DNA from: Aggregatilineales bacterium
GTDB taxonomy: Bacteria > Chloroflexota > Anaerolineae > Aggregatilineales > UBA2796
Length of the DNA: 64,000 bases
Assembly: GCA_965246845.1 (NCBI GenBank)
Contig: CBDFFR010000004.1
Coordinates: forward strand, 213,361-277,360
Reading direction: 5' to 3'
Part shown: positions 12,766-46,907 of the stretch, piece after piece
Position numbering within the stretch: the first letter of the stretch is position 1
Layout: each line of letters opens with the position of its first letter
Position numbers and translations under genes: made by a program
Notes under the pieces: generated by a model
Told to the model about the DNA's origin: nothing
Databases searched by the model: none
What the model saw: the letters and a program-made list of their open reading frames with translations, nothing else

Positions 12766-13098
12766 GTGTTGCTCATATCCAATATGTCTAAGTCATCAAG
12801 CGGTCGCTCTGCACACGCAGACGTTCAGGCGGCCTATGCTTCTCAACAGCGCGCGTATTCCAACAGCTCCACTCCAGCGGCAGCCACAAGCTATCGAGAA
12901 CCATCCAGAGCCAAAGTGCTGCGGTACTCAAGGGCAGTGTTCAAGGATACCGCGACCAGTGATAGCGAACTGGTCAGTGCCTTCACTGCATCCCTGCAAA
13001 CCCTGCTCGTGGCTTATACCCGCAGCCTAAACAGTGTCGTGCCGACCAACGCCCCGGATATTCCTCAAGCGGACACATCGCAAGGGGTGGACGCATGA
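12766..13098 (+). CDS. Small hypothetical protein coupled to the serine recombinase
   Basis: 110-aa ORF whose stop overlaps the recombinase ATG (ATGA at 13095-13098). An alternative start MSKSSSG lies at 12784. No motif recognised. Confidence 0.35.
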   Translation: MLLISNMSKSSSGRSAHADVQAAYASQQRAYSNSSTPAAATSYREPSRAKVLRYSRAVFKDTATSDSELVSAFTASLQTLLVAYTRSLNSVVPTNAPDIPQADTSQGVDA

Positions 13099-30647: not shown

Positions 30648-30740
30648 GGTGTGCGGCTCTGTTCGCGATTAGGACGAAGTTGTGCGTAGTATGACACACT
30701 TCGCTGCGAAGCAGGCTGCGATTGTGATTACAAAAGCATT

Positions 30741-31031
30741 TTAGTCGCCCTGATGCGCAAGCACAATTTGCGATGGCGGTATACCCGCCGCAATAAGCGC
30801 ATCCTCAAGCGGTCTATCGGTCGTGTCCGTCTCAATGATAACCTTCTCGCCGTCGATGCGCGTCAGGAGCATGATGTGCGGTTCAATTTCACGTTTGAGC
30901 GGCACGACAAGCACGGTATCGATCTTCTGCGCGTTATCGTGAAGATAATGCAGTTTCGCATTGAGCGAACGCCCGGCATAGCTCGCTACAACGCGGCTTG
31001 TGGTTGCTTCCAAATCAATTATTCGCTCCAT
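30741..31031 (-). CDS. xisI: XisI-family protein
   Basis: 96 aa. The pattern ...RIDGEKVIIETDTTDRPLEDALIAAGIPPSQIVLA resembles XisI (DGKIWIQxDxTE...L...GVPxxDIVLAF). Overlaps xisH by 13 nt. Confidence 0.6.
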   Translation of the reverse strand: MERIIDLEATTSRVVASYAGRSLNAKLHYLHDNAQKIDTVLVVPLKREIEPHIMLLTRIDGEKVIIETDTTDRPLEDALIAAGIPPSQIVLAHQGD

Positions 31032-31441
31032 CGCACGATCTCCTCTTTTACCAGATCAACTACCAGCAACGCGATCCCGTGTTCCTTGAGAATTGTCACA
31101 ATCGCGTTATTGAAATATTTTGAATACGTGCTTTCCGGGACGGCCATGTAGATCGGTAACGCAAATCCCTCACGTTCCGATATTCCTTTGTACACGACAC
31201 ACTGCCCTATCGCTCGATGAAGTTCCGGTGTTTTCTTCGGGAGCGTAAAACATTTCACCTCAACTCCAATCTCGAATGCCTGTCGTCCGTTGGCAGGACG
31301 TGAAGCTGTCAGATCGATGTGCAGGTCATTCCCAAACGCATCCGTGATATGCAATGGGGTTGGGTCTACAACCCATTCCGCTTTGCTCAATGCACTCGCG
31401 ACCTGAAAATGGCATGTATCGAGTTCCGGCAACGGGTTCAC
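31019..31441 (-). CDS. xisH: XisH-family protein (restriction-endonuclease-like fold)
   Basis: 140 aa. FH..VA.AL.K.EW.V..DP..I......L.IDL.A...., AFEIGVEVKCF, HRAIGQCVVYK and IYMAVPESTY match the XisH family pattern as I recall it. Confidence 0.65.
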   Translation of the reverse strand: MNPLPELDTCHFQVASALSKAEWVVDPTPLHITDAFGNDLHIDLTASRPANGRQAFEIGVEVKCFTLPKKTPELHRAIGQCVVYKGISEREGFALPIYMAVPESTYSKYFNNAIVTILKEHGIALLVVDLVKEEIVRWSE

Positions 31442-31512
31442 TCCACGAATATAGGGATATTCTATCGGGTTTTGTGTAGATTATTCGACGGAACACTTGT
31501 TCAATTATAAGT

Positions 31513-32415
31513 GTGACGTATAATCACAGCACACATAGCCGAGTCAAGCGCTCTATAAACAAGCAAAAAAAGGGAACTGGACGACGGGGCATCGAGTGGA
31601 CCGATTACACATGGAACCCTGTCGGTGGTTGTCAACATCGCTGCCGCTGGACAATGCCCGATGGGACAGTCGCGGAATGCTACGCGGAAACTGTCGCGGA
31701 GCGCATCGCACAGGCATCCTATCCACATGGCTTCGAGCATCATTACTGGCGACCGGAATCGCTCAACGAGCCGCTCAAAGTCAAAGCACCTTCGCGTATC
31801 TTCCTCGACTCGATGTCGGACCTGATGGGGCATTGGGTCCCGGAAGAGCAGATTTTGCAGGTTCTGGATGTCTGCCGCCGCGCACCCTGGCATCAATTCC
31901 AGCTCCTCACCAAAAACGCGCCGCGCCTGCGCGAATTCGAGTTCCCATCGAATGTGTGGGTTGGAGTGAGCGCCCCGCCGACCTCAATGTTTGGAAAGCC
32001 GCTGACCTTTCGGCAGCAGCAGCGAATGGTTGAAACAATGATGTCTGTTCTGGAAAAAGTTGATGTTCCAGTGCGCTGGATGAGCATCGAACCCCTGAGT
32101 TTCGATATTGCGCCGCTGCTCGTCGGAAGCCCGCTTGAATGGGCGGTTATTGGAGCAGCAACCAATGGCGTCGCGACCTACCAGCCGAAAGAAGAATGGG
32201 TGACAAACGTGTTGAGTGTCCTCGACGCTCAGAATACCCAAGTGTTCTTCAAGGGCAATCTGGATTGGCAGCCTTGGTGCGAAAATTTGCCGATTGTTAT
32301 GTCACCGGTGGCAACCTACAACGTTTTCGATAGTAATTCAAAAGTTGTATTTCAATCTCAGAAAAATTTGGACGAATATACGGCCATCCCTCGTCGTCCT
32401 CAGGCGCATGTGTGA
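31513..32415 (+). CDS. Phage Gp37/Gp68 family (DUF5131) protein
   Basis: IEWTDYTWNPVGGCQHRCRWTMPDGTVAECYAE (Cx3Cx10C), FLDSMSDL, LLTKN and SIEPL. GTG start at 13 of 31513. The 3' tail overlaps the convergent HEPN-like ORF by 119 nt. Confidence 0.7.
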   Translation: MTYNHSTHSRVKRSINKQKKGTGRRGIEWTDYTWNPVGGCQHRCRWTMPDGTVAECYAETVAERIAQASYPHGFEHHYWRPESLNEPLKVKAPSRIFLDSMSDLMGHWVPEEQILQVLDVCRRAPWHQFQLLTKNAPRLREFEFPSNVWVGVSAPPTSMFGKPLTFRQQQRMVETMMSVLEKVDVPVRWMSIEPLSFDIAPLLVGSPLEWAVIGAATNGVATYQPKEEWVTNVLSVLDAQNTQVFFKGNLDWQPWCENLPIVMSPVATYNVFDSNSKVVFQSQKNLDEYTAIPRRPQAHV

Positions 32416-33082
32416 CTGGCGCGTGTTCTACAATCAGGTCCAGTAATTTGTCAAGCGGCGTATCTTTTTCAAAACCCGTACCATAACTAAGATAAGCAAA
32501 GGAGCTGTAGGCTGGTGAGCAAAGCAGGTTGAATAGATGTTCAGCAGAGTTCATCAAGGCTCTTAAATTCGACAACTCTATATTGTCGAATTTCTTCTCA
32601 TATTTTGGATTGAGGCTCAGATGTGCAAAACGGTTGTTCCTTAATGCCTTAATTTGCTCACTCAGACTTTGAATTTGCTTGTCAAAACTAGAGCGCTTCA
32701 AATGCTCATTAAATTTGCTGATACTCTCTTGGTCGCGTAGGCGGGAGCTAATCTGGGTGCGAAAGTTCCCAATCGTAAGAACGTCTTTGCGAGGATCGAC
32801 AAAGAGGGTAAATGTGCTAACAATTACATATTCAAGCAGCGTAACTTTAACGACTTTCCAGAAGACGTAATCTTCTGGTACAAGAAATAGACCGAATGGA
32901 AATCTATGCAGACGTTCAAAGATAAGCAGACGCATTTCGAGGGCGATCATTTCCGTATACAACGACTCCTGTAGACGTTCATATTCAGGAGCCCACTCAG
33001 GTTGCAGCAGCGCTCGTATGTCAAGCAGGTTGTCTTCGTCGTCATCTGGAAGAGCGAAAACTATTCCATCTAAGCTGTCCAT
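32297..33082 (-). CDS. HEPN-like (AbiU2-type) protein
   Basis: 261 aa, AT-richer than its neighbours. Rx4-6H motif in IKALRNNRFAHLSL, of the R[N]xxxAH type seen in Abi/HEPN RNases. Overlaps the upstream ORF by 13 nt. Confidence 0.45.
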   Translation of the reverse strand: MDSLDGIVFALPDDDEDNLLDIRALLQPEWAPEYERLQESLYTEMIALEMRLLIFERLHRFPFGLFLVPEDYVFWKVVKVTLLEYVIVSTFTLFVDPRKDVLTIGNFRTQISSRLRDQESISKFNEHLKRSSFDKQIQSLSEQIKALRNNRFAHLSLNPKYEKKFDNIELSNLRALMNSAEHLFNLLCSPAYSSFAYLSYGTGFEKDTPLDKLLDLIVEHAPVTHAPEDDEGWPYIRPNFSEIEIQLLNYYRKRCRLPPVT

Positions 33083-33663
33083 GGATGTGTCTTCGCAATA
33101 TCGATGCCTTGCAAGTGCTTCGAGAGACGACCCAACCGCGCCGCAAACTGCTGATTCATATATGCCCTGATTTCCTGTAGTAGCGTATTTACAGCCAGTG
33201 TCATCGCCTGCTCATTGTTCTCACCCTTTACGTGAACGTGTACATCTCTTTGCCCGAACCCCGCCCCTGAAAGGGTCAAAGATGCAGGCGAGAACGAGCG
33301 AACACGCGGACCAATTGATGAAATGCTTGAAATTTTCAGGGCAACAGGTTGCCCGCGCGCTCCGGGATCGTCGATACCACGCGCGATGAGGCCAAGCGCA
33401 TGAGAATACTGATTTTCAAAAAAGACAACAAAATCATTGTAGAGTGTCATCATCACCTGAATTGTTTGCTCCTGCGTTTGTCCATCGAAAAACACCTTGA
33501 AAGTTGCCTTGTCATTTAGCTCCGTTGAGAAGAAACGCAGTTCGGAGTGCCAGCGCTCCGAAGTTGGTGCATTCTCATTTACGTAGGTTGTGATTTCGGC
33601 TGTTACAGCCTGACTGTTCGCTAATTGCACAGTCGAGACAGGTTTTGCGTTGTGCATCGTCAT
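33070..33663 (-). CDS. Hypothetical 197-aa protein translationally coupled to the methyltransferase
   Basis: The ATG at 33663-33661 overlaps the MTase stop (ATGA). The listed 252-aa ORF is an N-terminal extension into the MTase gene. No motif recognised. Confidence 0.5.
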   Translation of the reverse strand: MTMHNAKPVSTVQLANSQAVTAEITTYVNENAPTSERWHSELRFFSTELNDKATFKVFFDGQTQEQTIQVMMTLYNDFVVFFENQYSHALGLIARGIDDPGARGQPVALKISSISSIGPRVRSFSPASLTLSGAGFGQRDVHVHVKGENNEQAMTLAVNTLLQEIRAYMNQQFAARLGRLSKHLQGIDIAKTHPWTA

Positions 33664-36600
33664 TCCTCGTTGTTTTCGATTGCTGCCAAAGTTTCTGTCA
33701 TCACGCCCGCCGTCCCCTCCACCAGCGCGATCTCCGCCTCCGTCAACCCATAGGCCGTATAGACCGCCGCGTTCAACTCCGCTTCCAGCTTCGACAGCCG
33801 CGCCGCATCGTGCGCCGCCGCGAGGCACGCACGCGCGAGGTCTGCGATTTGCGCGCGGAGTGGGTCGGGTGGGTTGGGGATGGGGAGTTGTTCGACATAT
33901 TGAGTAAAGAAGCGCAAGTATCCGCCTCTTATTTTCTGATCCGACAAATTACGATAGAGCCATTCAACAACGGTTGAATTTAACACGCCTAAAACGTAAA
34001 AATCAGCAATTGGTAGGAAGTAAACAGTATTCGCGCAAAATGTACCTTGTTCATCTATAACAAAACGAAAGTCATTCGCAATGTCTGGATATACTATTTT
34101 GGGCATGTCAAATTGATGGTAAATGCCCATTTGTGGTTGTTGAAGCTCATACCAAGCGTGATTTGCACTGGTGGCTCGTGCCTCCAACTGTGGCTTGAAA
34201 CGTCGCAGGTGTTCTTCTATTGCAGGGTAAGCTATGATGTTCAACCCTCTTTTAGCGAAAATCAAATAACTACCTTGATGACCAATCTTCCAGCGCTTAA
34301 TGTCCTTCCCGACGACAAACGGCTTAATAACTTCCGCGCTCTTCGAGTCGGCGGCGATGAGTTCCGCGCGTTTGTCGCCATCAATGACGAAAGCCTCATT
34401 TAATCCTGTAACTACGCCACGAAATATTTTTCCATCGACGTAAGTTTTAAGTGGCGCTCCTAAATGCTTGATCTTTTCGAGCAACGTAGCATTTCGCTCG
34501 TTGGTGAGCGTCCATTGGGAGCCATTTAGCGCAGTTTGCGGCAGTGATTGGCCTGTTAATTTTATAACGGCACGTAAATCCATATCATCGCGCCAATCTT
34601 CAATTTTCGTGAAGTGTGTTATGTCACCTCGTTGTTTGTGTAGCACCAATACGAGTGGATAGGTTGTCGCGTCTTTGAACACAGGCGCATCATCGAAATC
34701 TGTCAACTGCTGAACGTGAAATTGCGCCAAGTATTTACGCAAATTCGCGCCGTATCCACCTTTGATGAACTTATTCGGGCTGATAAATGCGAGTGTTCCA
34801 CCATCGCGGAGAAGTTGAATTGCACGCGCATAGAAATAGACGTAAAGATCGGCGCGCGCGGAGAACACTTCGGGGTAGGTTTTCTCTAGTTCGGCACGTA
34901 TGCCCTTAAATTTATCCATGCTTACGTAAGGCGGGTTGGCGACCACAATATCGAAGCCGCCGCGAGCCGCGAAAACCGTGTGGAAGTGCAGGCGGTAGAG
35001 GAAGAAGGGGAGCGGCTTCGTCAGGTCGCGCATCTGCGCTTCGATTTCGCCGAGGCGGGCATAGCGGACGGCTGCGGAGTCGAGGGTGCGTTTATCCTTC
35101 GCGGAGAGGACGCCGTTTTGCTGACCGCTTTTCTTTCCATAGATATTGACCTGCTCTTTGGCGGCGTCAATCTTCACGGCGAGGGCGTTGAGGGCGATCT
35201 CGCGTTCGCGGATGACAATTTCGGCGCGCAGTTCGCGGCGTTCATCGGGCGCGGCACGGAAGAAACGGCGGTGCAGCGTATCGAAGTCCTCACGCGAGCG
35301 CTGCACGGCCTTTTCACTCTCAAAGAGCGCCATTTTTCCCTGCACGGCGTCGCCGATCAGGTTTTGCTGGACGAGGGCTTGCGGGTCGGCGGCGAAGAGC
35401 GATTCGGAGCCAGCGGTGAGGATCGACTCGCCATCCAGCGTTTCGATCAGGCTGTCGCCAACCATCAGCTTGTATTCGAGGTTGGGGAGCGGGCGGGCTT
35501 GTTCGAGGGTCTGATCGACGACGAGGGCGAGCCACAGGCGAAGCTGCGCGACCTCGACGGCTTCCGGCTTGAGGTCCACGCCATAGAGCGTGTCGCGGAT
35601 GATGGCTTCCTTCCAATCGGCAACCTGCGCGGGCGTGACGGCGACTCCGTTGGCGAGGGCGCAGGCACGGCGCAGGCGCAGAATTTCGGTCATCATACCG
35701 ATCAGGAAGCTGCCGGAGCCGACGGCGGGGTCGAGGACGGTGAGGGTATCGAGGGCGGCGGAGATGCGGTCGGCTTCGGCGGGGGTCAGCGCGGTGGGTT
35801 GCTCCGCATCGAAGAGGGCTTGCGCACGTTCGCGGGGAACATCGGCGCGGGTCGCGAGGTAGCCGGCGAGCGCTTCCTGACACATATAGGCGACGATCAC
35901 GCGCGGGGTGTAGAAGGAGCCAGATTGCCCGCGATCCTGCGCCTGGAGCTGGTTCTCGAAGACCTTGCCCAACATTTCGGGGTCCACCGCGACATCGAGT
36001 TCGAGGGGCGTGTCTTCACTGACGGTGAAGTTGTAGCGGTTGAGGAAGGCGAGAATGCCCGTGTCGCCCATCGGGTCGAAGAGCGAGTCCGGGAGGATGA
36101 GCGTCCCGGCGGGGTCGCGGGCGGGGTCGAAGAGACCTCCATTGAGGTATGGGATTGTTTCCCAGCCGCGCGTCCATGAGGGCAAGGCGCGGCGGTCGGG
36201 CGGGGTGTTCATCGTCTCGAAGAAGACCGGGGCGAGGACCTCCGTATAATAGTGGAAGGTCTCGACGTTCGGCGGGGTGTTATCCGCGTCGTGGCGCAAC
36301 ATGCAGAGGCGGTATTGTTCGGTGAGGAAGCGCTGCCCGCCCGCAAGCCAGCCCTTGCGCTGGAGGAAGTAGAGGAACATCAGGCGTCCGAGGAGGCGTT
36401 GGGCGAAGGCGCGCAGCTTGTCGGCTTCGTAGAATTCGCGAACGCCGGGGTTGTACTTTCGGGCGGCTTCGATGACGGCGCGGAAGAACTCGCTGTACTG
36501 GCGGTCGAACTTGCGGGTGAGGGCAGTCACGCTGAAGGCGTCGCGTTGCGCATCGTAGACCTGGATGCCGCCCCGGTTCCATGCGGCGAGGGTGCTCAGG

Positions 36601-37019
36601 GTATCGACATCGTGGCGGGTCGCGTCGGTGGTGACGAGTTTGAGTTTGTTGAGGCGCAAGCTGGATTTGGTGGCGGAGCCTGCGAAACGCGGGTCAATGA
36701 AGACGACTTCGCGGTAATCAGCGGTGACGACGAGCAGACAGGTTCCGCGACTGAGCAGGTTATAGGCGATGCCGCGCAGGTGGGATGGGCGCGGATCGCG
36801 GGTTTCGAGCAGGTAAATGGTGTGCAGGTCGCGTTTGGCAAGGATGTACAGCTTCGCGATGTCAGCGCGTTCGGGGGCGGTGAAGTCGAAGGCGTCCAGA
36901 CCGTCGGCCTCGAAAGGGTCTGCGTCACCGGGTTGGTAGCCGAGGCGCTCAAAGAGCGTGACGACATCGGCGGCGGTGTGGAGCGCGAGGTGAGCGAAGG
37001 TGATCGAGTCGTTGGGCAT
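33660..37019 (-). CDS. Large N6-adenine DNA methyltransferase, Eco57I/PglX/DrmMI-like, with no obvious nuclease motif
   Basis: SAM motif VLDPAVGSGSFL. Catalytic motif DIVVANPPYVSM. N-terminal region ...RLMFLYFLQRKGWL... is typical of the type IIG/BREX-PglX-like family. C-terminal TRD-like region. Confidence 0.8.
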   Translation of the reverse strand: MPNDSITFAHLALHTAADVVTLFERLGYQPGDADPFEADGLDAFDFTAPERADIAKLYILAKRDLHTIYLLETRDPRPSHLRGIAYNLLSRGTCLLVVTADYREVVFIDPRFAGSATKSSLRLNKLKLVTTDATRHDVDTLSTLAAWNRGGIQVYDAQRDAFSVTALTRKFDRQYSEFFRAVIEAARKYNPGVREFYEADKLRAFAQRLLGRLMFLYFLQRKGWLAGGQRFLTEQYRLCMLRHDADNTPPNVETFHYYTEVLAPVFFETMNTPPDRRALPSWTRGWETIPYLNGGLFDPARDPAGTLILPDSLFDPMGDTGILAFLNRYNFTVSEDTPLELDVAVDPEMLGKVFENQLQAQDRGQSGSFYTPRVIVAYMCQEALAGYLATRADVPRERAQALFDAEQPTALTPAEADRISAALDTLTVLDPAVGSGSFLIGMMTEILRLRRACALANGVAVTPAQVADWKEAIIRDTLYGVDLKPEAVEVAQLRLWLALVVDQTLEQARPLPNLEYKLMVGDSLIETLDGESILTAGSESLFAADPQALVQQNLIGDAVQGKMALFESEKAVQRSREDFDTLHRRFFRAAPDERRELRAEIVIREREIALNALAVKIDAAKEQVNIYGKKSGQQNGVLSAKDKRTLDSAAVRYARLGEIEAQMRDLTKPLPFFLYRLHFHTVFAARGGFDIVVANPPYVSMDKFKGIRAELEKTYPEVFSARADLYVYFYARAIQLLRDGGTLAFISPNKFIKGGYGANLRKYLAQFHVQQLTDFDDAPVFKDATTYPLVLVLHKQRGDITHFTKIEDWRDDMDLRAVIKLTGQSLPQTALNGSQWTLTNERNATLLEKIKHLGAPLKTYVDGKIFRGVVTGLNEAFVIDGDKRAELIAADSKSAEVIKPFVVGKDIKRWKIGHQGSYLIFAKRGLNIIAYPAIEEHLRRFKPQLEARATSANHAWYELQQPQMGIYHQFDMPKIVYPDIANDFRFVIDEQGTFCANTVYFLPIADFYVLGVLNSTVVEWLYRNLSDQKIRGGYLRFFTQYVEQLPIPNPPDPLRAQIADLARACLAAAHDAARLSKLEAELNAAVYTAYGLTEAEIALVEGTAGVMTETLAAIENNEE

Positions 37020-38057: not shown

Positions 38058-40100
38058 ATGGTTTGTCACAATGAGCCGCATCGTCCAACACTGAACGTAC
38101 ATAGAGAAAATGCGATGATAACTGGATATTCGGCAACGATTGGCGAAAAACGCCTTGAGCGCTTGCTACAACAGCTTCCTCAAACTGAATTTATAGCGTT
38201 TCCACAACCGCGTATTGATCGCAATGAGCAAACAAGCACAAACCCGGATTTTTTGCTAGTGTGGAAGAGCAAAGGCATCCTCGCTATTGAAGTTAAAGAC
38301 TGGCTTGAAATCACAGGTGGCGACTCACGAAAGGTCACTATTCAACAGCGCTCAGGGGAAAAGCGCTCCACAACAAACCCCTTCCAGACGGCGAGAAGCT
38401 ATGCCCTTGATCTCAAGGAGCGCCTAGAAACATATCGTGATTTCATGACTGAAATTCGCGGCAGTGAAAAGTTGTCTTTTCCATGTGAGGGGCTGGTCGT
38501 TCTATCTGCATTCTCGATGAGTACCGTATCTGGGTTGGAAGATGCAGGTATTTTCCCTGAGAATGCTGTGCTATCTGGAGATGATCTGCTGAATGTAGAA
38601 GCGCTTGTCAAGGCGCTAAACCGGATACGATGGACCTTCCCGCTCTCCCGCCAAATCGCAGATAGCACAATCGAAGCGTTCGAGAAATACCTTAATCTTG
38701 TGCGCGTCGATGTTCCTGTTAAATTACGGGGTGATACTGTACTTGAGACAAAGGGGAATTTAACACCTGACCAAGAGCGGGTACTTTGGCTTCCATTTGA
38801 GAAGATTCGTGCGGGTCACAACATCCACCTGTTACGTGGCCCTGTCGGATGCGGAAAAACCGTCGTGTTAAGTAAGCGAGCTATGCGTTGTGCTGAAGCA
38901 CGACCGGATTGGAAGGTGCTGGTCACATCGTTTCATATCGACATTGCTGATGATCTTCGGCGTAGAATTCCGCAACCCACAATTGATGTGAAGAAGTTCT
39001 ACGCAATTTGTGAAGAAATCCTGGGTGAGAACTATCCGCGAGTAAAAGATTATCGCGGCGAGTTGGGTCCGTTGGCTATTCGGGATTGGACCAAGCAGAT
39101 AGGAGATGAAATTAAAGGGCTTGGACTGACACCGGATTTTATTGCCAGTGAAATTGGTCGTCGGAAGGATGCGCAGCTTTATGATATAGCGGAATACAGT
39201 GAGGATTTGAAGCGACGCCACAAATGGTTGAACGAGGATCAACGTGAGTGGCTTAATGAAATATTCTTTGAACTTTACCAAAGCTATCAGAAGGAAGAAG
39301 CCGCGCATGGTAACGATGCACGCGATTGGGAGGACTTGATCGTGTTGACCAAAGATGCACTGCGAAATCACAAAATGCGGCAGTTATACGACGCCATTTT
39401 CATTGATGAGGCGCAGGATTTTAGCCCTATGATGATGGAAGTCATAAAACGGTTGCTGGTTCCAGGTGGTTACCTGTTTCTCACTGACGATCCCGTTCAA
39501 TGTTTGTGGCGTCGGTTTAACTGGGCAGATCGTAACGTCAAACCAAATAGAACCGATACGTTGGGGACACCGTTGCGAACTACAATCTCAGTTTTCAATC
39601 TCGCTCAGTGTTTGCTTGATGAACACCCAATGATGCGCGCGGAGAATGATACCGACTTGTATCCGGCAACTCCTGGCGAGCAAGTAGAAACGGGCGAAAT
39701 GCCGCAATTAAAACAATTTGATACAGAGGACAGTGAATGTGAGTTCATCGACAAGACACTGCAATCCCTCCTCGACAATGGCATTGACGCAGCACAGATT
39801 GCTGTTTTCTTTCCAAGATACAATGGGTTTAAGGAACGTTGGAAAGAAAGGGATGTTTCGTTTCAGCAGGTTTTCGTGAGTACATTCGGCCGCATCAAAG
39901 GTCTGGAATTTGAAGTGGTGATCATCCCTGAACTCAATCAAATGTTTAAGTTGATGCCAGCCAGAGATCGTGACAATATGGTACTTTCTCTGCGACAGTT
40001 GTTTGTAGCGATCACTCGCGCCAGGAAGCAGGTGTATCTCTCCTACTGTGGCACTCTGCCAGAACAACTCGCCTGCCTACGCTATTTTTGTGTCGAATGA
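38058..40100 (+). CDS. NERD-domain + UvrD/AAA_30-like SF1 helicase (Nhi-like architecture)
   Basis: NERD-like NPDFLLVWKSKGILAIEVKDW. Walker A LRGPVGCGKTVV, Walker B IFIDEAQDF, and C-terminal GLEFEVVIIPE...LFVAITRARKQVYLSY. Alternative ATG at 38115. Confidence 0.7.
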   Translation: MVCHNEPHRPTLNVHRENAMITGYSATIGEKRLERLLQQLPQTEFIAFPQPRIDRNEQTSTNPDFLLVWKSKGILAIEVKDWLEITGGDSRKVTIQQRSGEKRSTTNPFQTARSYALDLKERLETYRDFMTEIRGSEKLSFPCEGLVVLSAFSMSTVSGLEDAGIFPENAVLSGDDLLNVEALVKALNRIRWTFPLSRQIADSTIEAFEKYLNLVRVDVPVKLRGDTVLETKGNLTPDQERVLWLPFEKIRAGHNIHLLRGPVGCGKTVVLSKRAMRCAEARPDWKVLVTSFHIDIADDLRRRIPQPTIDVKKFYAICEEILGENYPRVKDYRGELGPLAIRDWTKQIGDEIKGLGLTPDFIASEIGRRKDAQLYDIAEYSEDLKRRHKWLNEDQREWLNEIFFELYQSYQKEEAAHGNDARDWEDLIVLTKDALRNHKMRQLYDAIFIDEAQDFSPMMMEVIKRLLVPGGYLFLTDDPVQCLWRRFNWADRNVKPNRTDTLGTPLRTTISVFNLAQCLLDEHPMMRAENDTDLYPATPGEQVETGEMPQLKQFDTEDSECEFIDKTLQSLLDNGIDAAQIAVFFPRYNGFKERWKERDVSFQQVFVSTFGRIKGLEFEVVIIPELNQMFKLMPARDRDNMVLSLRQLFVAITRARKQVYLSYCGTLPEQLACLRYFCVE

Positions 40101-40460
40101 GCCATAGCCTCACTCACTCTTATCGGCAAGTGTTGTACCACGATAGTCGCGCTAATCCTCTTGTTCGTAAGCATTATGGTCAGATACTCCATTGTGTTTT
40201 CGTTCCATGTCTGTAGTGCGACCACAAACGCCTCTTTGTGACCCATCGTGCAAGCATGTTTGTAATCGGCGTAGAGCTTCTTAGCTGAGACAAAGCCCAT
40301 TGGCAGGTTACAACGCCAGAGTGTCGGGGATGGGGCGCTCCGGTGGGTCCTGTTTGCGTCGCAGTATTTTCAACGTCAGACAGTTTTCGACGTCCAGCCT
40401 CTGTAATCTTATATGGTTCGCCCTTCTCATGTAGTGCAACGTCCTATAGCGCACCCACTG
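40082..40460 (-). pseudogene. Relic of the 3' end of a primase/helicase gene (paralog of 42027..44942) with an internal deletion
   Basis: The 72-aa ORF GFVSAKKLYADYKHACTMGHKEAFVVALQTWN... parallels NGFVSTEKLYGGYKHACAMGHKLPFLTALHNQN... of the full gene. DNA at 40200-40330 aligns by eye to 42170-42300, and 40370-40460 aligns to 42740-42830. Confidence 0.7.
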
Positions 40461-40463
40461 CCC

Positions 40464-41978
40464 TCAACCTACGTACAAATATGCCGCAGCACTTGACCGT
40501 ATTCCCGCATCGTACCCACCCAAAATCAGTACATCACCCGTCGGGAGCGTCGTCGCTGTCATGTAATACAGCGTCTCGGCTATCTTGCCCGACGCTATGG
40601 TAAACTCCTTTGCCGCGGGATCATATACTTCGACCTGACTCCCACTACCCACCACCAGCACCCGATCATTGTACAGTGTCACCACCGAATCAATGATCTT
40701 ATACCGTCCCTCGCGCAGGGCCGGTGCTTCCCGAAATGTACCCGCTGCTGTATCGTAAATTTCAGCGCTCTTGAACGCCCCCACCGCCCCGTACTCCTCG
40801 ACATCCGCACCGCCTACAACCAGCACGTCGCCATTGGGCAGCGGCCTCGCAGCGTGCTTGTGCCGTCCGGTAAGCAGTGCCCCCGTTTTGGTGAACGTTC
40901 TGCGCGTCTGGTCGTACAGTTCGGCGCTGGCCGTCACCTGTGTGCCATTGCGTCCGCCCACGATCAGAATCTGACCATTAAACAACCATGTGGCGGTGAA
41001 TGAGGCGCGCGGCTCGGTCATGTCTCCAATTGCGGTAAATGTGCGCTTCCGGTAATCGTAGATTTCAGTGCTCGTCAGTGATTGACGATAGCCGTTGGTG
41101 TAGCCACCCATGACCAACACATTCCCGTCATCCAGCAAAATCGCGACGAACCCTTCGCGCGGCGCAGTCAGTGATCCCACAGCAGTAAAGGTGCGTGTTG
41201 CCGGGTCGTAAAGTTCAGCGCTGGAGAGACGCCCACTTTTACCATACCCGCCCATAATCAGCACCGACGCATCATTCAGTTCTACTGCCACATGGCTTAC
41301 CCGCGCATCCGTCATTCTGGTTTCCAGAGCCGTAAATTCGCGCTTCTGCACGTCGTAAAGTTCAGCGCTGTCGAAAATGTTGCCTTCGCCCGCCATGCCG
41401 CCTGTGATCAGCACCGTGCCGTCACGGAGCATAGTCGCGGTATGCCCAGCGCGCGGCGTGGTCATCGTTGTGGCAAGTTTTTCTACCCGTCCGGGCGTCT
41501 GGTCGGCCACACGGAAGACCACTTCACCGGAGTCTTTGCCGTGCTGCACAATCATCCGCCAACAGCCCGCTTTCAGGAAAATAAAGCCCGTTCCATATTC
41601 TGCGCCAGGACGCTCCCAGGTAGAGCTACCGTGCGCTTCCGGTCCCCATCTCGGCAGAACTTCCGTGCCGTCCTCGTGCCGCGCCACAATGCTGAAATTG
41701 CCGAACCCCGTCATGCGCCAGACAATTTTCACCTCATGTCCTGTTTGAAACGGCTTTGGCGGGGTGAACAGGAGCGCCCATAGCTCTTGCGTGGCCGAGG
41801 TCCCTCTTACTTCGGGAAAATTCGTAATGCCGCCCTGAATGGGGGTCGCCACACACGCCGCTTGCAAGGTCTCCGCCCGCACTGCACAACCGCTTGGCAG
41901 AGTCGCACATAAGCACACCATCATACACATCACGTACCGCAGCATTAGCCATTCTCCACTATCTGGATGGTCAGGCAA
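40464..41978 (-). CDS. Secreted/lipoprotein Kelch-repeat protein
   Basis: N-terminal hydrophobic segment with Cys (LCATLPSGCA). At least 6 repeats of the type GHTATMLRDGTVLITGG...SAELYD. Confidence 0.65.
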   Translation of the reverse strand: MPDHPDSGEWLMLRYVMCMMVCLCATLPSGCAVRAETLQAACVATPIQGGITNFPEVRGTSATQELWALLFTPPKPFQTGHEVKIVWRMTGFGNFSIVARHEDGTEVLPRWGPEAHGSSTWERPGAEYGTGFIFLKAGCWRMIVQHGKDSGEVVFRVADQTPGRVEKLATTMTTPRAGHTATMLRDGTVLITGGMAGEGNIFDSAELYDVQKREFTALETRMTDARVSHVAVELNDASVLIMGGYGKSGRLSSAELYDPATRTFTAVGSLTAPREGFVAILLDDGNVLVMGGYTNGYRQSLTSTEIYDYRKRTFTAIGDMTEPRASFTATWLFNGQILIVGGRNGTQVTASAELYDQTRRTFTKTGALLTGRHKHAARPLPNGDVLVVGGADVEEYGAVGAFKSAEIYDTAAGTFREAPALREGRYKIIDSVVTLYNDRVLVVGSGSQVEVYDPAAKEFTIASGKIAETLYYMTATTLPTGDVLILGGYDAGIRSSAAAYLYVG

Positions 41979-42026: not shown

Positions 42027-44942
42027 TTACTGTGTCATGGGAATTGGCTTGGCTTCGCGTGGTAAGTGCTGAATGACCACGTACTCGCGGATGTGTTTGC
42101 CGGCGACCAGCTCCTTGAGGTAGTCAATCGCTTTCGTGTTCTGGTTGTGTAATGCGGTCAGGAACGGCAACTTATGACCCATCGCGCAAGCATGTTTATA
42201 GCCGCCGTAGAGCTTCTCGGTAGAGACAAAACCGTTCGGCAGGTAGAGTGCCAAAATATCGGGGATGGGGCGCTCTGGCGGGTCTTGCTCGCACCGCAGC
42301 ACTTCCTCGAAGTAGGGCGTGAAGGCATCACCTAACGCAATCTCAAATGCGGTGCGCAGGTGGCGTGGGACAATCTCTGCAATCTTGTACAAGTCCATAC
42401 CATCCGAGGTTGGATATTGGACCTGGACCTGTTCTGCGTAGCGCGCAATGTCTTGTACCGTCATCGGCGGCAGGGATCGTTCTTCGGCTTGTACATCTTC
42501 GGCATGTCTAATCGGAGGGCTTTGGATATTAGACATCGGGCCTGAATGAGCATCAGTAGCGTCATTCGGCTGGTTGTCTGTCTCATTGGCTGCTGTGTTG
42601 TCTAATGTCAGGTCCGTTCCACACCCATAGGTGTGTGGAACTGGACTAGACATTGGACATGACTCCGGTAGTGTCCAAATGAACGGGGTTGGACATGCTT
42701 TAGACAGGTTGGACTTGACGCTTACGGCTGCACTTTCGGCGTTAGACAGCTTTAGACGTCCGGCTTCGGTGATCTTGTAGGGGTCGCCCTTTTCGTGTGG
42801 CGCGACGTAGCCAAGTCTAATCAGCGCGTTGAGACTGTAATACTTGCTCGCACGCTTTGTACCCGGCGGGAGGATTTCGTCCAACTGGCTGGACTTGATA
42901 CCAGACATGGCGAACATCTCTAACCCGACCGCACGAAGGATTTCTAGTTGCAGTGAGGAGAGCTTGTCGGCTGTCGTCTGCACGCGCTTCTCGGCAGGGA
43001 TGAGGACCGGGACAGGTGCTTCTTCGCCGATGTCGACAAGGACAGGTTTCAAGTACAAGGTATTGAACTCTGCCGAGTCCTTGACCTTTGCACAGGAGAC
43101 GGCGATCAGGTCATCTTCTTTCGAGACCTCCATCATCACGTCCATACCACCGCGTATAACAGTCGAGCCGCGCTCACGTCCGCCTGCGGCATTGGTGTGG
43201 TGGACGGCAACGACGGTTGCGCCTGTCTCGCGACGTACGCAGTCGAGTGAGTCCAGAATGAAGCCCATATCCTTCTGGTTGTTCTCATCCGCGCCGAGGC
43301 TGCACCGCGAAAGCGTATCGAAGACGACGAGCGCAGGTTGCTTGCTCTGGATGGTGGAGATGAACTGCTGGACTGCTTGCGCCTCGAAGAGCTGCACAGG
43401 TTCACGCCAGATGAAGAGTTCACCGCCTGCCTGTTTACGAAACTGCTGCCACGCCTTCTTGCGGCTGCGATAGCCGCGCAGTCCTTCGGCAACCACATAG
43501 ATCACGGTTTTGCCCGTCGCGGCGAGCGTCTGTGCCATATCGAAGACAACCTGCGTTTTGCCTGTGCTTGGAGCGCCATAGACTTCTACAAGGCTGTCCT
43601 CCGGCAGGTAATCATGGATGAGCCAGCGTATCGGCGGTAGGCTATCGAGGTCATCGACGTGCATCAGCATGTCGGAAGTTACAAGCTTGGGTTGCGCTGC
43701 GGGTTGGTTGGATGCAGCGCACTGGTCGCTCGTTACATTTAGTGGCTCAGAGGTGGATGCTTTCACCACGCGAAGCGGCGGCAGCGCTGGTCGCGTCTTC
43801 GGTTGCACATTGAGCATGACCCCTGCAAAGGTCGCGGCCTCCTGTAATGCCTGCCTGAACATCGTGGTATCGTGTTTGTTCCATGACGCGCCAAAGATGC
43901 AGTAGCCCACCAGATCGAGCGTGTCCCCGCCTGCGTGACCCGTGTGGTGATACCAGATGCCCTTCTCGATATTGATGAGCAGCCCGCCGTTTCCCGGTAG
44001 CCGATACTCTTTCCCGCTCTGCACAGCTTGCACACCGAAGTGCTGCTCGGCATAACGCACCATGTCGAAATGAGATTTGATGTCGTCTAGCACATGGCGG
44101 TCTGCTGACTGAGGTGACGCCGCATTGGACGGCAGTTTCGACGGTTGTGGCAGTTCTACTTGCGGAACAGGCAGTAGCCTTTGAAGGGTCTCAACCGAAA
44201 CAGGCGTCGGATTATCCGGTACTTCCAAAATCTGAGAACGACGGTGCGGACGCTCAGGTGTCGAGTCGCCTTTGCACGCCAGCGTGCCGTACAGTTTAAT
44301 GAGATGACTTGCGCCGATCATGCCCGTATCGACCTTCACCCGCTCGTTGCTGAACGTCGAGTCGAGCAACGCCAAAAACGTCTTGATGAGCGCTGTTGCA
44401 GCATCATCGTTCGGCCAGTCGATTGGGATGAGCAGGTGCGCTCCGTTGCCGGAGTCAGCAAGGAGTGCATGAATGCCATGCTGCGCCAGCCACTCGCGGC
44501 AGGCTTTCGCCCGCTCAATGGCTGCCTGATGCTCTTCCTCAGAAGATGAGATGCCCGCCGGACGCATCGGGTCAAAGTCGATGAACAACCAGCGACGGCG
44601 CGGTACGTCCTTGTCTGCCGAGGTCTGTTTGGCGTACTCCTTGATGCGGTTCACGCTTCGGGCGAGCAGTGCGGGCTGTACCGGGTTGATGGTGATGTAA
44701 ATTCCGTCGGCGCGACCCTCATAGCTCGCTGCGGCTTTGGCAAGCGCTTCAAAGTCGTTGAAATACCCGCTGTCGGTCCGCTTACCCTGGATGCCGGGAA
44801 TGCGCAGTTCCAGCGTATCACCCGGTTGGAACATGACCGACAGGGTACGGCGCATCAGCGCGATAGCTTCCGCGCGTGAGGCGGCTTGTGTTTTATGAAT
44901 AGTCGATACGGTAGAAGTCACATCCGCCTCCGGGCAACACAA
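42027..44942 (-). CDS. Bifunctional AEP primase-polymerase + RecA/DnaB-like (AAA_25) helicase replication protein with wHTH
   Basis: AEP motifs LFIDFDP (DxD) and ADSGNGAHLL (sGxGxH). Walker A YGAPSTGKTQV and Walker B LVVFDTLS. wHTH-like LNALIRLGYVAPHEKGDPYKITEAGRLKL. Confidence 0.7.
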   Translation of the reverse strand: MCCPEADVTSTVSTIHKTQAASRAEAIALMRRTLSVMFQPGDTLELRIPGIQGKRTDSGYFNDFEALAKAAASYEGRADGIYITINPVQPALLARSVNRIKEYAKQTSADKDVPRRRWLFIDFDPMRPAGISSSEEEHQAAIERAKACREWLAQHGIHALLADSGNGAHLLIPIDWPNDDAATALIKTFLALLDSTFSNERVKVDTGMIGASHLIKLYGTLACKGDSTPERPHRRSQILEVPDNPTPVSVETLQRLLPVPQVELPQPSKLPSNAASPQSADRHVLDDIKSHFDMVRYAEQHFGVQAVQSGKEYRLPGNGGLLINIEKGIWYHHTGHAGGDTLDLVGYCIFGASWNKHDTTMFRQALQEAATFAGVMLNVQPKTRPALPPLRVVKASTSEPLNVTSDQCAASNQPAAQPKLVTSDMLMHVDDLDSLPPIRWLIHDYLPEDSLVEVYGAPSTGKTQVVFDMAQTLAATGKTVIYVVAEGLRGYRSRKKAWQQFRKQAGGELFIWREPVQLFEAQAVQQFISTIQSKQPALVVFDTLSRCSLGADENNQKDMGFILDSLDCVRRETGATVVAVHHTNAAGGRERGSTVIRGGMDVMMEVSKEDDLIAVSCAKVKDSAEFNTLYLKPVLVDIGEEAPVPVLIPAEKRVQTTADKLSSLQLEILRAVGLEMFAMSGIKSSQLDEILPPGTKRASKYYSLNALIRLGYVAPHEKGDPYKITEAGRLKLSNAESAAVSVKSNLSKACPTPFIWTLPESCPMSSPVPHTYGCGTDLTLDNTAANETDNQPNDATDAHSGPMSNIQSPPIRHAEDVQAEERSLPPMTVQDIARYAEQVQVQYPTSDGMDLYKIAEIVPRHLRTAFEIALGDAFTPYFEEVLRCEQDPPERPIPDILALYLPNGFVSTEKLYGGYKHACAMGHKLPFLTALHNQNTKAIDYLKELVAGKHIREYVVIQHLPREAKPIPMTQ
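42601..42760. repeat. Iteron-like array plus hairpin embedded in the primase/helicase gene
   Basis: T(A/G)GAC(A/T) / TTGGACATG units (ggactagacattggacatgac, gtgtccaaatg, gttggacatgc, tttagacaggttggacttgac, gttagacagctttagacgtcc). Hairpin ttccacac/gtgtggaa at 42617-42640. 42601-42665 aligns to 12486-12550. Confidence 0.65.
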
Positions 44943-45102: not shown

Positions 45103-45387
45103 CTAAAAACCGAACATCTCAGCGGATTGTTCAACGATGCGGCTGGTCGCCTCCGGCTCGGCAGGACTGCTGATGTTCGGACTTTTACCTGTGCGCTTGT
45201 CCGGTCGGGGCATACTGCTGATGGTTCGTCCGGGTGCTGGATGTGTATCACGAAAAAGGTAGGAGACCAGCGCCTGCCGGATGACCTCTCCGGCACGACG
45301 GTGACGCAACAAATCAGCCAGCGCGTCGTAGAGCGCTGCCTCCTGCGGGTTGTCCATGTTCAGCGAGAACTCCACCCGGCGGTTCAT
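45103..45387 (-). CDS. ParR-like small DNA-binding partition adaptor (putative RHH)
   Basis: 94-aa ORF overlapping the 3' end of parM by 4 nt. The position and size are those of parR. N-terminal beta-strand/helix pattern RRVEFSLNMDNPQEAALYDALADL. Confidence 0.45.
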   Translation of the reverse strand: MNRRVEFSLNMDNPQEAALYDALADLLRHRRAGEVIRQALVSYLFRDTHPAPGRTISSMPRPDKRTGKSPNISSPAEPEATSRIVEQSAEMFGF

Positions 45388-46457
45388 GAGGCTGACGCAG
45401 ACTCGCGCTCCCGACGAACCAGAAACCCGAATGCCCCTTCTACATTCCCGCGCCGGGTGTCGGCGGAAAGCACCCAGTGGCTCGCCTTGCCGTTGTTCAG
45501 ATAGGGCTGCAGCAGCGCTGCGCCACCCCCGCCGAGGATGACCGTCCGAATGTTCTTGCCGCGCAGTGTGCTGTTCACGAAGTTCAGGATGCGCTCGGCA
45601 AGCGCGGAGAGTTCCAGATGAACGCTTTGTGTCAGGTCATAGGTTTGGTTGTTGACGATGATCTGCTCGCTGCCCAGCGCCTCATCGACCTGCCACACAT
45701 CCAGGCCGTATGCGCCTTGCCGCCGCAGGTCTTCCAGCACCGCCGCTGCGACTGTCCCCATGCCGATGTCCGCTGACTGCGCGCCACCAACCACATACAC
45801 ACCATCCTGCATCAGCACCACGTCGGTTGTGTAGTAGCCGATGTCTACAATTGCGGTACTGCCGCGTGTGTAGCGCTCGTCCATCGTGCCGTCCTCAAGG
45901 AACGCCGCCAACCAGAACGTGCCGAGTCCTTCCGGGATAATGATCAGGTCGGCGGGTTGAACTTGTGCATACAACGACGCCCCGTTCAGCCCGTGTATCT
46001 GATACTCCCCTTGCAGCAGGTCACGAACTTCTTTGTCTTTCTGGACGTTGAACTCGCCGACCGGGATGGAAATCACTCCACGCGGGTACAGCACGCCGTC
46101 GCCTGTCTTGTGGCCGAAGGTGCGCCACAACGCGCTTGCAAAGAGCAGCCGATAGCGGTCCGAGGTATACCGGATACGACTAGTCAGGGCAGTCGGCTCG
46201 GTATCACAGAGCAAGCGCACGTCGTCACCAAAGACGTACTTTGTATTATCGATCTGGATGACCAGCCGATCTGCAACGCTGACCAGTGTATTCCGTCGAC
46301 TGAGGACACCATAGATAGAACGGTATTCGGCAGACACATCGTAGCTGCGCAGCTTGCAGAAACCATTGCCCAGGTCGAACGAGTACAGCGGCTTGCAGTT
46401 CTCGTCAGGATTCACGATACGCACTTCCTGTTGTATCACTTTGGCTTTCTTTGGCAT
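45384..46457 (-). CDS. parM: ParM/StbA-type actin-like segregation ATPase
   Basis: Phosphate-1 FDLGNGFCK, connect PEGLG, phosphate-2 VDIGYYTTDV, adenosine VILGGGGAA. Confidence 0.75.
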   Translation of the reverse strand: MPKKAKVIQQEVRIVNPDENCKPLYSFDLGNGFCKLRSYDVSAEYRSIYGVLSRRNTLVSVADRLVIQIDNTKYVFGDDVRLLCDTEPTALTSRIRYTSDRYRLLFASALWRTFGHKTGDGVLYPRGVISIPVGEFNVQKDKEVRDLLQGEYQIHGLNGASLYAQVQPADLIIIPEGLGTFWLAAFLEDGTMDERYTRGSTAIVDIGYYTTDVVLMQDGVYVVGGAQSADIGMGTVAAAVLEDLRRQGAYGLDVWQVDEALGSEQIIVNNQTYDLTQSVHLELSALAERILNFVNSTLRGKNIRTVILGGGGAALLQPYLNNGKASHWVLSADTRRGNVEGAFGFLVRRERESASAS

Positions 46458-46460
46458 GAT

Positions 46461-46907
46461 CTAACGCTCCTTTTTGTGCTTCGGGACCTTGCTGGAACCG
46501 GGCTGAACCCGGTTAGCGCGTGTCTGTCCGGGTTCAACCCGGGTTGTGGCCGGGTAGTCCGCAAGCGAGATCGTGTTACGGTCGAGCACGTCGGCCAGCT
46601 TCGCGTTCGAGAGCAAGTGCGCCCGGCACGCTGCTTTGAACTTTTCATCCAGCCGCACGCACGTTTGCAAGCGGAAGCCTGCATCGTGGATCGCGGGTGC
46701 AGTTCGGCTGACGTACTCTTTCAGCTTGCCGCCGTTCTTGAAGCACGCAACCCGCAGCCGACCGATACTCGGCAGCACGACCGTGTCACCCGTTGCAGCT
46801 TCTTCTGCAACACTTTCGAGGTAGAATTCAACTGCTTGGCGGGCGTGTTCGCGTGTAAGACCGCGCACCTGCCGTGAGACGTGAATAATGCGCTCTGTGT
46901 GGTTCAT
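46461..46907 (-). CDS. HU/IHF-like DNA-binding protein with extended basic tail
   Basis: GLTREHARQAVEFYLESVAEEAATGDTVVLPSIGRLRVA resembles the HU fold N-terminus (helix-turn-helix body followed by beta arms). Confidence 0.5.
   Translation of the reverse strand: MNHTERIIHVSRQVRGLTREHARQAVEFYLESVAEEAATGDTVVLPSIGRLRVACFKNGGKLKEYVSRTAPAIHDAGFRLQTCVRLDEKFKAACRAHLLSNAKLADVLDRNTISLADYPATTRVEPGQTRANRVQPGSSKVPKHKKER
46495..46546. repeat. parC-like palindromes immediately upstream of parM
   Basis: ggaaccgggctgaacccggtt (46495-46515). gtccgggttcaacccgggttg contains the perfect palindrome caacccgggttg (46526-46546). Confidence 0.55.

Follow-up and report, generated by a model that had tools for sequence, protein, structure and literature searches.

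What is a dense array of short repeats, gathered around a hairpin, doing inside a protein-coding gene? The question is raised by a stretch of 64,000 nucleotides (nt) from an Aggregatilineales bacterium (contig CBDFFR010000004.1, positions 213,361 to 277,360), referred to here as the window. In it, an open reading frame (ORF) of 971 amino acids (aa) encoding a primase-helicase, here named rep, contains such an array, and a second cluster of the same units, 30 kb away (locus 2, 11390–12790), is non-coding. An earlier note on this DNA, made from the letters alone, had argued for a cis-acting role of both clusters, with phage lambda and satellite phage P4 as precedents. To judge from sequence, the array is a strongly supported cis-acting DNA element, documented by its clustering, its constraint at the level of DNA, its symmetry, its place in the domain layout of the protein and its recurrence in relatives. 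We further consider it likely that the array (42486–42760) serves a plasmid-type replicon of the Chloroflexota as its vegetative origin of replication (oriV), and that this origin is read in frame as part of the initiator gene, where it encodes the disordered linker.

The array inside rep

T[AG]GAC units were counted on both strands of the whole window, where the 212 matches amount to a background of 0.99 per 300 nt. Only two clusters are outliers, with 16 units per 300 nt at 12250–12600 (locus 2) and 12 per 300 nt at 42500–42900 (rep); elsewhere the maximum is 5. When 212 matches were placed at random in 5000 trials, the maximum per 300 nt was 9 at the most and 5.5 on average, so that both clusters stand above background. 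The exact 9-mer TTRGACATG occurs ten times in the window, seven times in locus 2 and three times in the gene, and nowhere else. The consensus of 31 unit copies is ATTRGACATGA, and the spacing between neighbouring units is mostly 9–11 nt. Within 42601–42760, for which about ten units had been claimed, ten T[AG]GAC units were found (at 42600, 42642, 42647, 42654, 42673, 42690, 42701, 42710, 42743 and 42753), and the interval 12304–12560, where they had been said to be more numerous, holds sixteen. Clustering of one short unit far above background, as seen here, is a mark of iteron-type origins. The parts of the gene-internal array, together with the gene and the adjoining protein domain, are as follows.

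42027–44942, minus strand: rep, ORF of 971 aa (ORF list, translation, Pfam, homologues)
42726–42968, minus strand: predicted winged-helix DNA-binding domain of Rep, aa ~659–739, directly N-terminal to the repeat-encoded peptide (AlphaFold2, Foldseek)
42486–42722, minus strand: in-frame repeat array coding for linker aa 741–819 (KSNLSKACPTPFIWTLPESCPMSSPVPHTYGCGTDLTLDN...MSNIQ), with evidence from the predicted local distance difference test (pLDDT), synonymous identity and codon bias
42599–42659: core imperfect palindrome, in which inverted units TGTCTAATGTCAGGTCC and GGACTAGACATTGGACA converge on an inner hairpin (folding, pair conservation)
42673–42760: six more units on the winged-helix-proximal side (42673 on the minus strand; 42690, 42701, 42710, 42743 and 42753 on the plus strand), spaced mostly 9–11 nt
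42504–42536: distal inverted unit pair ATGTCTAAT-N15-ATTAGACAT, which encodes the MSNIQ island

At the centre of the core, GTTCCACAC (42616–42624) pairs with GTGTGGAAC (42633–42641) across a loop of 8 nt; the hairpin described before is thus present, with a stem of 9 base pairs (bp) in place of the 8 then given. Folded as single-stranded DNA, the gene core reaches -20.7 to -21.4 kcal/mol (z -5.6 to -5.8), and the two cores of the window together span -19 to -21 kcal/mol (z -4.7 to -5.8). Short iterons at the 3′ end of rep, opposite in orientation on either side of a centre, are the arrangement of the staphylococcal pathogenicity islands (SaPIs) discussed below, and are found here. Both of the clusters delimited in the earlier note are real, and both are larger than was described, as units also lie at 42504–42536, 11393–11420 and 12731–12791. 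The winged-helix-proximal units of 42673–42760 are kept in the DNA of relatives, which also retain GTCYAATGTCCAA (xSNVQ) at the distal pair within an otherwise hypervariable linker.

The protein offers a candidate reader for these units. An N-terminal PrimPol-like domain of Rep (aa 78–193) is matched by Pfam LigD_Prim-Pol with an E-value of 3.5e-5, below the curated cut-off, and a helicase of the AAA_25/RepA-like RecA fold (aa 430–586) with a Pfam E-value of 8e-30. An AlphaFold2 model of aa 635–971, built with 31 sequences, contains a winged-helix-like unit in the order helix-helix-helix-strand-strand at aa ~659–739 (pLDDT ~90), a stretch at aa 741–819 that is predicted to be disordered (pLDDT <50), and a confident helical C-terminal domain at aa ~828–965. 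The best Foldseek matches to the model in the PDB are winged helices (MotA, MarR, ArsR, AspA and TubR), with weak E-values of 0.02–0.2. A winged helix in the C-terminal part of Rep, as had been assumed, is thus supported by structure model and fold search, and it adjoins the array. What had been called a low-complexity linker does hold the array, and is more exactly the predicted-disordered stretch of aa 741–819 between the winged helix and the folded C-terminal domain. Iterons lying in frame in an inter-domain linker (aa 741–819) correspond to the lambda O/RepA_N type of origin, and a primase and a helicase joined with a C-terminal winged helix, whether in a single protein or in neighbouring ones, to the SaPI type.

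Searches with known families and collections returned little. PDB sequence searches with Rep gave RecA-like P-loop similarity only, with no match to solved RepA or RepB′ structures. No lambda O or RepA_N match was found in Pfam or NCBIfam, and no PF08706 (D5_N) match, by which a P4 alpha-type protein would be recognised, in Pfam. Near-identical searches of plasmid and phage collections, with DNA and with protein, found distant helicase or primase matches only; a scan of viral contigs with the core sequence found no match, and neither did exact-protein look-ups of the window Rep and its relative P0002. Rfam gave no family match, only sub-threshold chance matches to microRNA hairpins, and promoter and terminator scans stayed at chance level. 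By eye, the hairpin arms look like DnaA boxes (TAATCCACA in locus 2), a likeness on which we do not rely.

Conservation of the array as DNA among relatives

The linker motif is present in 23 close relatives of Rep (about 50–78% identity), which come from metagenomes and from Aggregatilineales and Chloroflexota genome bins. Alignment of the proteins shows strong conservation of the linker peptide KSNxSKxxPxPFIWTLPxxCPMSSPxPHTxxCGxDxTLD and hypervariable sequence after it. DNA was fetched for 16 rep genes with the linker motif (13 loci with the segment, then three more), and in every fetched close-relative locus containing the rep segment the units form one cluster only, in the corresponding part of the gene; about 14 relatives of 51–78% identity thus share the array. 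Physical linkage of the array to rep, a further mark of iteron-type origins, is thus conserved among the relatives.

Is this segment held constant for its peptide or for its nucleotides? Synonymous-codon identity was taken as the share of identical residues that use the identical codon, in gene pairs less than 85% identical in the helicase region. The background is 0.40 ± 0.046 with a maximum of 0.50 (19 windows of 40 codons), and the helicase core, where the protein is 85–97% identical, reaches only 0.44–0.53. For aa 741–800, the value is 0.76–0.83 in distant pairs. Many core codons are frozen in 75 of 75 pairs, among them Pro763 CCA, Ser766 AGT, Pro769 CCA and His770 CAC. Codon choice in the segment is also skewed relative to the sequence outside it, with CCA for Pro (79% versus 24%), ACA for Thr (51% versus 18%), AGT or TCT for Ser (61% versus 26%) and TTA for Leu (22% versus 6%). 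Where Cys762 is replaced by Ser in some relatives, the GTCCA unit is still present. Because the codons are frozen and skewed, GTCCA is retained and the encoded peptide is predicted to be disordered, it is on these comparisons the DNA, or formally the RNA, that is conserved in this segment.

The palindrome was examined for pairing in 12 cores, of which 11 are gene-internal and one is that of locus 2. Its 23 pairs are kept in 96.4% of cells, against 22–47% when the partners are slid by 1–3 columns. At the foot of the inner stem, two pairs vary in a compensatory manner, one between A-T and G-C (7 versus 5 sequences) and the other between T-A and A-T (10 versus 2). A palindrome with conserved symmetry, a mark of pRN1-type origins, is thus found. 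In 22 of the 23 proteins, residues 768 and 776 (V768/T776) covary: V is paired with T, N with L, and I with either M or I. This covariation follows from the complementarity of the codons concerned (GTT/AAC, ATT/AAT and AAT/ATT), and has no evident reason at the level of the protein. In L012 a TGA stop stands at codon 761 inside the core, and the palindrome is a perfect 31-bp inverted repeat (CTGATGTCTAATGTCCAGTCCAGTTCCACAC and its mirror, 9990–10082) just 3′ of the shortened ORF; the frame after the stop is open to the contig end. In L014, at ~7500, the rep homology breaks inside the core, directly after ATGTCTAG.

Three more distant relatives of Rep were also examined (P0052, P0058 and P0038), two of which have an array of the same layout with other units. 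In P0052 (35% identity; L036, 3355–3625), no fewer than 12 CGAACTATCAC / GTGATAGTTCG units form two sets of opposite orientation, which lie in frame in the linker after the winged-helix motif and encode RDSS, ELSP and NYH peptide repeats. At P0058 (31% identity; L038, 5232–5373), five CTGCCAAAG-type and six TGGCAGGCAG units converge on a G8/C8 hairpin; this array begins at the stop codon, just 3′ of the gene, and the gene neighbourhood is phage-like. An array 3′ of the ORF is hence present in L012 as well as L038. The unit sequence differs by Rep clade (TTGGACATG, GTGATAGTTCG and CTGCCAAAG), and as array position and geometry are shared while the unit varies with the Rep clade, the arrays conform to what is expected of an initiator's own recognition sites. 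The cis-acting role inferred in the earlier note is therefore upheld by frozen synonymous sites, codon skew, compensatory changes, a disordered peptide, a non-coding copy and distant relatives.

Locus 2 and the neighbourhood of rep

Locus 2 and the other features of the window that bear on its history are listed here.

11390–11416: left remainder of locus 2 (CATGTCTTG, CATGTCTAA), severed by the insertion sequence (unit scan, junctions)
11417–12306, minus strand: IS5-family insertion sequence (IS) inside a CATGTCTAAG unit of locus 2 (Pfam DUF4096 and DDE_Tnp_1, inverted repeats, junctions)
12307–12560: main part of locus 2, 16 units, non-coding (unit count, alignment)
12598–12660: second repeat family, TTCAACCCGG / CCGGNTTGAA, 4 copies, 40 nt from locus 2
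12731–12791: three near-consensus units (CATGTCCAG, CATATCCAA, TATGTCTAA) to the right of CCGG repeats
13095–14816, plus strand: large serine recombinase, 0.5 kilobases (kb) from locus 2 (homology to L035)
40124–40467, minus strand: frameshifted fragment of a second rep (aa 704–740 and 884–961; 76–77% DNA identity to the resident gene)
45103–46457, minus strand: partition module directly upstream of rep, with a ParM/Alp7A-like actin gene (45384–46457) and a 94-aa ORF (45103–45387) (Pfam, NCBIfam)
46498–46553: the only other TTCAACCCGG-family cluster, 3 copies, 40–100 nt upstream of the ParM-like gene

The core palindrome of locus 2 lies at 12484–12542, and its inner hairpin is formed by 12501–12509 pairing with 12518–12526; the conservation of the stem at this second locus had been recognised correctly. 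No ORF spans the locus, again as had been claimed, with stop codons in all three plus-strand frames. The likeness first noticed by eye was between 42601–42665 and 12486–12550. A direct alignment of this kind exists (48 of 68, with gaps) because the core is palindromic, but the inverted alignment is better and longer: 42600–42719 on the plus strand matches 12542–12424 inverted, with 73% identity across 120 nt, and local alignment of the two loci scores 60 in the inverted and 33 in the direct orientation. Read on its plus strand, locus 2 therefore runs in the same sense as the coding strand of rep.

Of the 42 alignment columns in which the gene-internal cores never vary, locus 2 shares 40. Its best match, at 86% identity, is L013, which has an N/L-type core; identity to the resident gene is 77%. 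Over a homologous stretch of ~125 nt the unit spacing is kept without gaps, and the spacer that encodes FIWTLPE in the gene is unrelated. The core centres of the two window copies differ (ACCTATGG versus ACCTTCAG), and locus 2 has a perfect local duplication, with CAGTCATGTCCAA present twice. In the rep-equivalent frame it reads ...SCPM-stop...SCLMSSPNPHTFRCGLDWTLD-stop, from which it follows that it is derived from a coding version and is now non-coding. Homology to rep genes is limited to the ~125 nt of array, with none found upstream, across the IS or downstream; for this reason, the simple view of locus 2 as the 3′ end of a decayed rep was ruled out.

The IS that divides locus 2 has a transposase gene at 11436–12230 and terminal inverted repeats at 11417–11435 and 12288–12306, and its excision in silico restores GTCATGTCTAAGCATGTCCAAAGG. 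The CTAG/CTAA tetranucleotides of the units may be favoured insertion targets, given the IS in locus 2 and the break in L014, and the target preference of IS5-family elements fits CTAG/CTAA. To the left, a 20-nt inverted repeat (11258–11277 and 11390–11409, 85% complementary, 112 nt apart) sits between a 287-aa ORF (10394–11257) and the left remainder of locus 2, and its right arm holds the degenerate unit CATGTCTTG.

Is a second cluster a regular companion of the gene-internal one, as crr is of ori in P4? In the contigs of seven relatives no second unit cluster was found, even at a lower threshold, within the DNA available (up to 10 kb on each side, often much less), and the other relatives' contigs, mostly <5 kb, have the rep-internal cluster only. 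The P4 analogy of the earlier note thus does not hold as a family trait, and locus 2 looks imported. It is probably an orphan origin core from a fused sister replicon of another subtype, and not a P4-style crr. Fusion of two replicons, with subsequent loss of the sister rep and survival of its origin core, would have produced locus 2, and would also have left the rep pseudogene fragment and the extra recombinases. The fragment at 40124–40467 is without ~435 nt, including the entire array, and is closest to the resident/L007 type; a single donor for this fragment and for locus 2, which is of the L013 type, was considered and is unsupported.

The recombinase gene beside locus 2 is followed by a second, paralogous one (16404–18416), with a 449-aa ORF between the two. 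Compared with the recombinase encoded upstream of parA-parB-rep in L035, their products show 32% and 39% identity, and this suggests, at the level of sequence, that large serine recombinases of this type belong to the backbone of the replicon family. As the core of locus 2 is intact, it is probably still bound by the resident Rep. This intactness argues for use of locus 2, whereas its absence from the fetched flanks of relatives, the IS and the foreign subtype argue for a relic.

The rep and partition genes are a plasmid-type replication and partition module, because the order is parM-like gene, small ORF and rep here, and parA, ParB-like gene and rep in relatives. The second repeat family, TTCAACCCGG, has 15 matches at no more than one mismatch in the window, versus 3.7 expected. 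Its cluster at 46498–46553 lies in the 3′ tail (TTRVEPGQTRANRVQPG) of a weak HU/IHF-like ORF (46461–46907, minus strand), and, upstream of the ParM-like gene, may act as a centromere or an operator, likewise written into a coding tail. Read in frame 1, the copies beside locus 2 give APNRLQPG.

The remainder of the window holds accessory and defence genes, insertion sequences and serine recombinases, and no tRNA genes were found in it. Defence-type genes at 27414–37019 and 53995–62104 encode an SNF2/PLD helicase, an Eco57I/MmeI-like methyltransferase, a DEAD-box helicase and a protein with a DrmE C-terminal domain (DISARM-like); an AbiU2 HEPN protein (32297–33082) and a NERD-UvrD helicase (38058–40100) are of the same kind. 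Beyond the window, the proteins P0026–P0051 have the PrimPol N-terminal region of Rep (55–69% identical, ~36–43% of the query) fused to a P4-type D5_N/superfamily 3 (SF3) helicase. With D5_N/SF3 in place of AAA_25, the helicase module is swapped behind one primase module.

Alternative explanations, known systems and meaning

Might the units serve segregation or recombination, and not replication? As a partition site (centromere) they would be bound by a partition adaptor, ParR-like here. Their ~10–11-bp spacing in two opposed sets recalls parC of plasmid R1, which consists of opposed sets of ~10–11-bp-spaced repeats; the ParM-like partition module lies directly upstream of rep, and the second repeat family beside locus 2 recurs upstream of the parM-like gene. 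Yet relatives with the same units and core have ParA and a ParB-like protein, not ParM, and the same units with different partition systems imply that the units travel with rep and not with the partition genes. The usual place of parC, upstream of parM, holds a different repeat family, and the units of the two distant relatives vary in sequence with the Rep clade; repeats upstream of parM that co-vary with the adaptor, as in R1, are not what is seen, the units being in rep. We regard a centromere as very improbable. Recombination would make the ~60-bp imperfect palindrome a substrate of the large serine recombinases, for multimer resolution or inversion. One recombinase gene is 0.5 kb from locus 2 and the second another 3 kb away, L035 has a homologue of both next to its parA-parB-rep genes, the two cores are mutually inverted, and the rep homology in L014 breaks within the core. 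However, L033 and L034 have the core and no recombinase gene in their fetched DNA (up to 10 kb, with almost nothing downstream in L033), the ten to sixteen extra units outside the palindrome are unexpected for such sites, and the differing centres (ACCTATGG versus ACCTTCAG) would hinder exchange. The L014 break and the IS in locus 2 both fall at CTAG/CTAA, as in the target choice of IS5-family elements, and we give a recombination site little credence.

A third possibility is that the gene copy acts as RNA or protein, through a messenger RNA stem-loop for pausing or isoform control or through a Cys/His peptide, and that locus 2 is a decaying pseudogene. The core does fold stably as a single strand, Rep occurs in short and long forms and the core of one relative contains a stop codon, the peptide has conserved C, H and C residues, and locus 2 reads in frame as SCLMSSPNPHTFRCGLDWTLD before a stop, hence from a coding version. 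None of this accounts for units in both orientations well beyond the stem, for the change of Cys762 to Ser with the DNA unit kept, or for residue covariation that tracks base complementarity in a peptide predicted to be disordered. Moreover, locus 2 has lost the flanking rep homology and the FIWTLPE spacer and keeps 40 of the 42 core positions, the spacing and extra perfect units; the layout in L038 is wholly outside the ORF, non-coding copies are also found in locus 2 and L012, and Rfam has no matching family. Such a function is, in our view, highly unlikely. The alternative that concerns locus 2 alone takes it as a functional partner of the gene-internal origin, required for replication or controlling it in the manner of P4 crr or by handcuffing or titration. 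Its core is intact, with the exact TTRGACATG seven times versus three in the gene copy, the CAGTCATGTCCAA duplication is perfect, and the clade has a highly conserved winged helix, so that the resident Rep should recognise locus 2. A partnership is nevertheless doubtful, since no second cluster occurs in the contigs of seven relatives (up to 10 kb of available DNA on each side), and since locus 2 has its nearest counterpart in another subtype (L013, 86%, versus 77% for the resident), is split by an IS and lies beside other remnants of a second replicon backbone.

Several observations also weigh against an origin in rep itself. No AT-rich unwinding element was found, with 46–52% GC in the array and its flanks versus 54–57% in the gene, and this is the main departure from the classical iteron model. 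Nor does coarse GC skew point clearly to an origin or a terminus in rep or at locus 2. Pfam found no match in the isolated winged-helix and C-terminal segments of Rep, and the Foldseek E-values for the former are weak, as given above. Kinship among the sequences inflates the pair counts of the synonymous test, for which the whole-gene background used the same pairs, and a constraint at the level of RNA may formally apply to the gene-internal copy. The moderately distant relative P0038 (L037) has no obvious array. The short-form protein P0004 (790 aa; L001/L033) goes with a degenerate right arm of the palindrome (…CCTATGTGTCGTGCCTGATGACATTAACC…), and its frame ends soon after. This short form stands on three contigs, so it is probably no assembly error.

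An origin in rep resembles the Rep/ori system of SaPIs in mechanism, and lambda O or RepA_N plasmids in placement. In SaPIs, a winged helix in the C-terminal domain of Rep binds iterons of 5–6 nt, of which 6–12 lie immediately 3′ of rep (PMC9371898); the iterons have opposite orientation on the two sides of a centre, and in SaPI5 pri and rep are fused (PriRep5) (PMC9371898). Common to both systems are a self-contained primase, helicase and C-terminal winged helix and opposed short iterons at the 3′ end of rep. The helicase is of the AAA_25/RepA-like RecA fold (RecA/RadB-like) here and SF3/MCM-like in SaPIs, the centre is a palindrome of ~50% GC in contrast to their AT-rich tract, and the candidate origin is part of the reading frame, with one more C-terminal domain encoded beyond it, in a Chloroflexota host.

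As for placement, the origin of phage lambda lies inside gene O, and this precedent, cited in the earlier note, fits well as an origin in the linker of an initiator gene. In RepA_N/pSK41/pLS32-type plasmids, iterons are likewise found within the initiator gene (PMC3155836). Here too an iteron origin would lie in the coding sequence of the initiator, between the DNA-binding and C-terminal domains. There is no sequence relation to these proteins, however, the present initiator has its own primase and helicase, and its inverted unit sets surround a hairpin where lambda O and RepA_N origins have tandem direct repeats.

For the archaeal plasmid pRN1, a stem-loop 3′ of the gene for the PrimPol-helicase-winged-helix protein ORF904 is required in cis, with symmetry counting for more than sequence in this element (PMC4234260). 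Domain order and a palindromic element at the 3′ end of rep are shared with the present case; pRN1 differs in its SF3 helicase, its ~100-nt stem-loop without evident iterons, its archaeal host and its non-coding origin. Satellite phage P4 has an alpha primase-helicase with C-terminal DNA binding and two iteron loci, ori and crr. A primase-helicase with C-terminal DNA binding, predicted in our case, and two separated iteron loci per genome are features in common, but the D5_N/SF3 helicase is absent from Rep and the second locus, a constant partner in P4, is in the seven relatives' available DNA no family trait and looks imported. The IncQ plasmid RSF1010 has an oriV served by the RepA helicase, the RepB′ primase and RepC, with 20-bp direct iterons and the hairpins ssiA and ssiB that prime the two strands (PMC8567376). 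A RepA-type helicase and an archaeo-eukaryotic-type primase act together with iterons and inverted-repeat hairpins in RSF1010, as they may here; in RSF1010 the proteins are three and separate and the iterons direct, and Rep has no sequence match to the RepA or RepB′ structures. That the palindrome is a priming site like ssiA and ssiB is only an idea. Altogether, the array reads as a variant of known arrangements rather than as a new kind of system.

How would such an origin work? That Rep binds the array, that the DNA melts and is primed there and that the array has origin activity is what we infer by analogy with these systems. The 971-aa Rep would be an all-in-one initiator, combining a primase-polymerase, a RepA-like RecA-fold helicase and a winged helix that would bind the ~11-bp ATTRGACATGA units facing each other across the central palindrome. 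Rep would then oligomerise on the two unit sets and load its own helicase, and the palindrome would open or be extruded without the help of an AT-rich unwinding element. Synthesis would be primed by the fused primase, and the palindrome could form a similar hairpin on each strand. The encoded peptide would be conserved, although unstructured, because the DNA is constrained. A bolder version, which we think unlikely, sees here a one-protein initiation independent of the host, with two Rep hexamers at the palindrome and the same hairpin priming both strands without DnaA, DnaB or DnaG; the origin would be overprinted by the rep frame, and locus 2 would be an in-trans site of copy control or incompatibility that records the replicon fusion.

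To our knowledge, there are hardly any genetic tools for Chloroflexota such as the Anaerolineae and Aggregatilineales, and no plasmid origin has been characterised in them. The array described here provides a concrete candidate for a minimal replicon, in which one gene holds its own putative origin, conserved across an environmental replicon family. The two distant relatives suggest a common origin layout for initiators of the PrimPol/RepA-like/winged-helix type, with inverted units leading to a hairpin at the 3′ end of rep. The segment is also a natural example of a DNA element constraining a protein, with frozen synonymous sites, covariation driven by base pairing and a peptide that is conserved yet disordered, and it cautions against taking conserved linker motifs as evidence of protein function.

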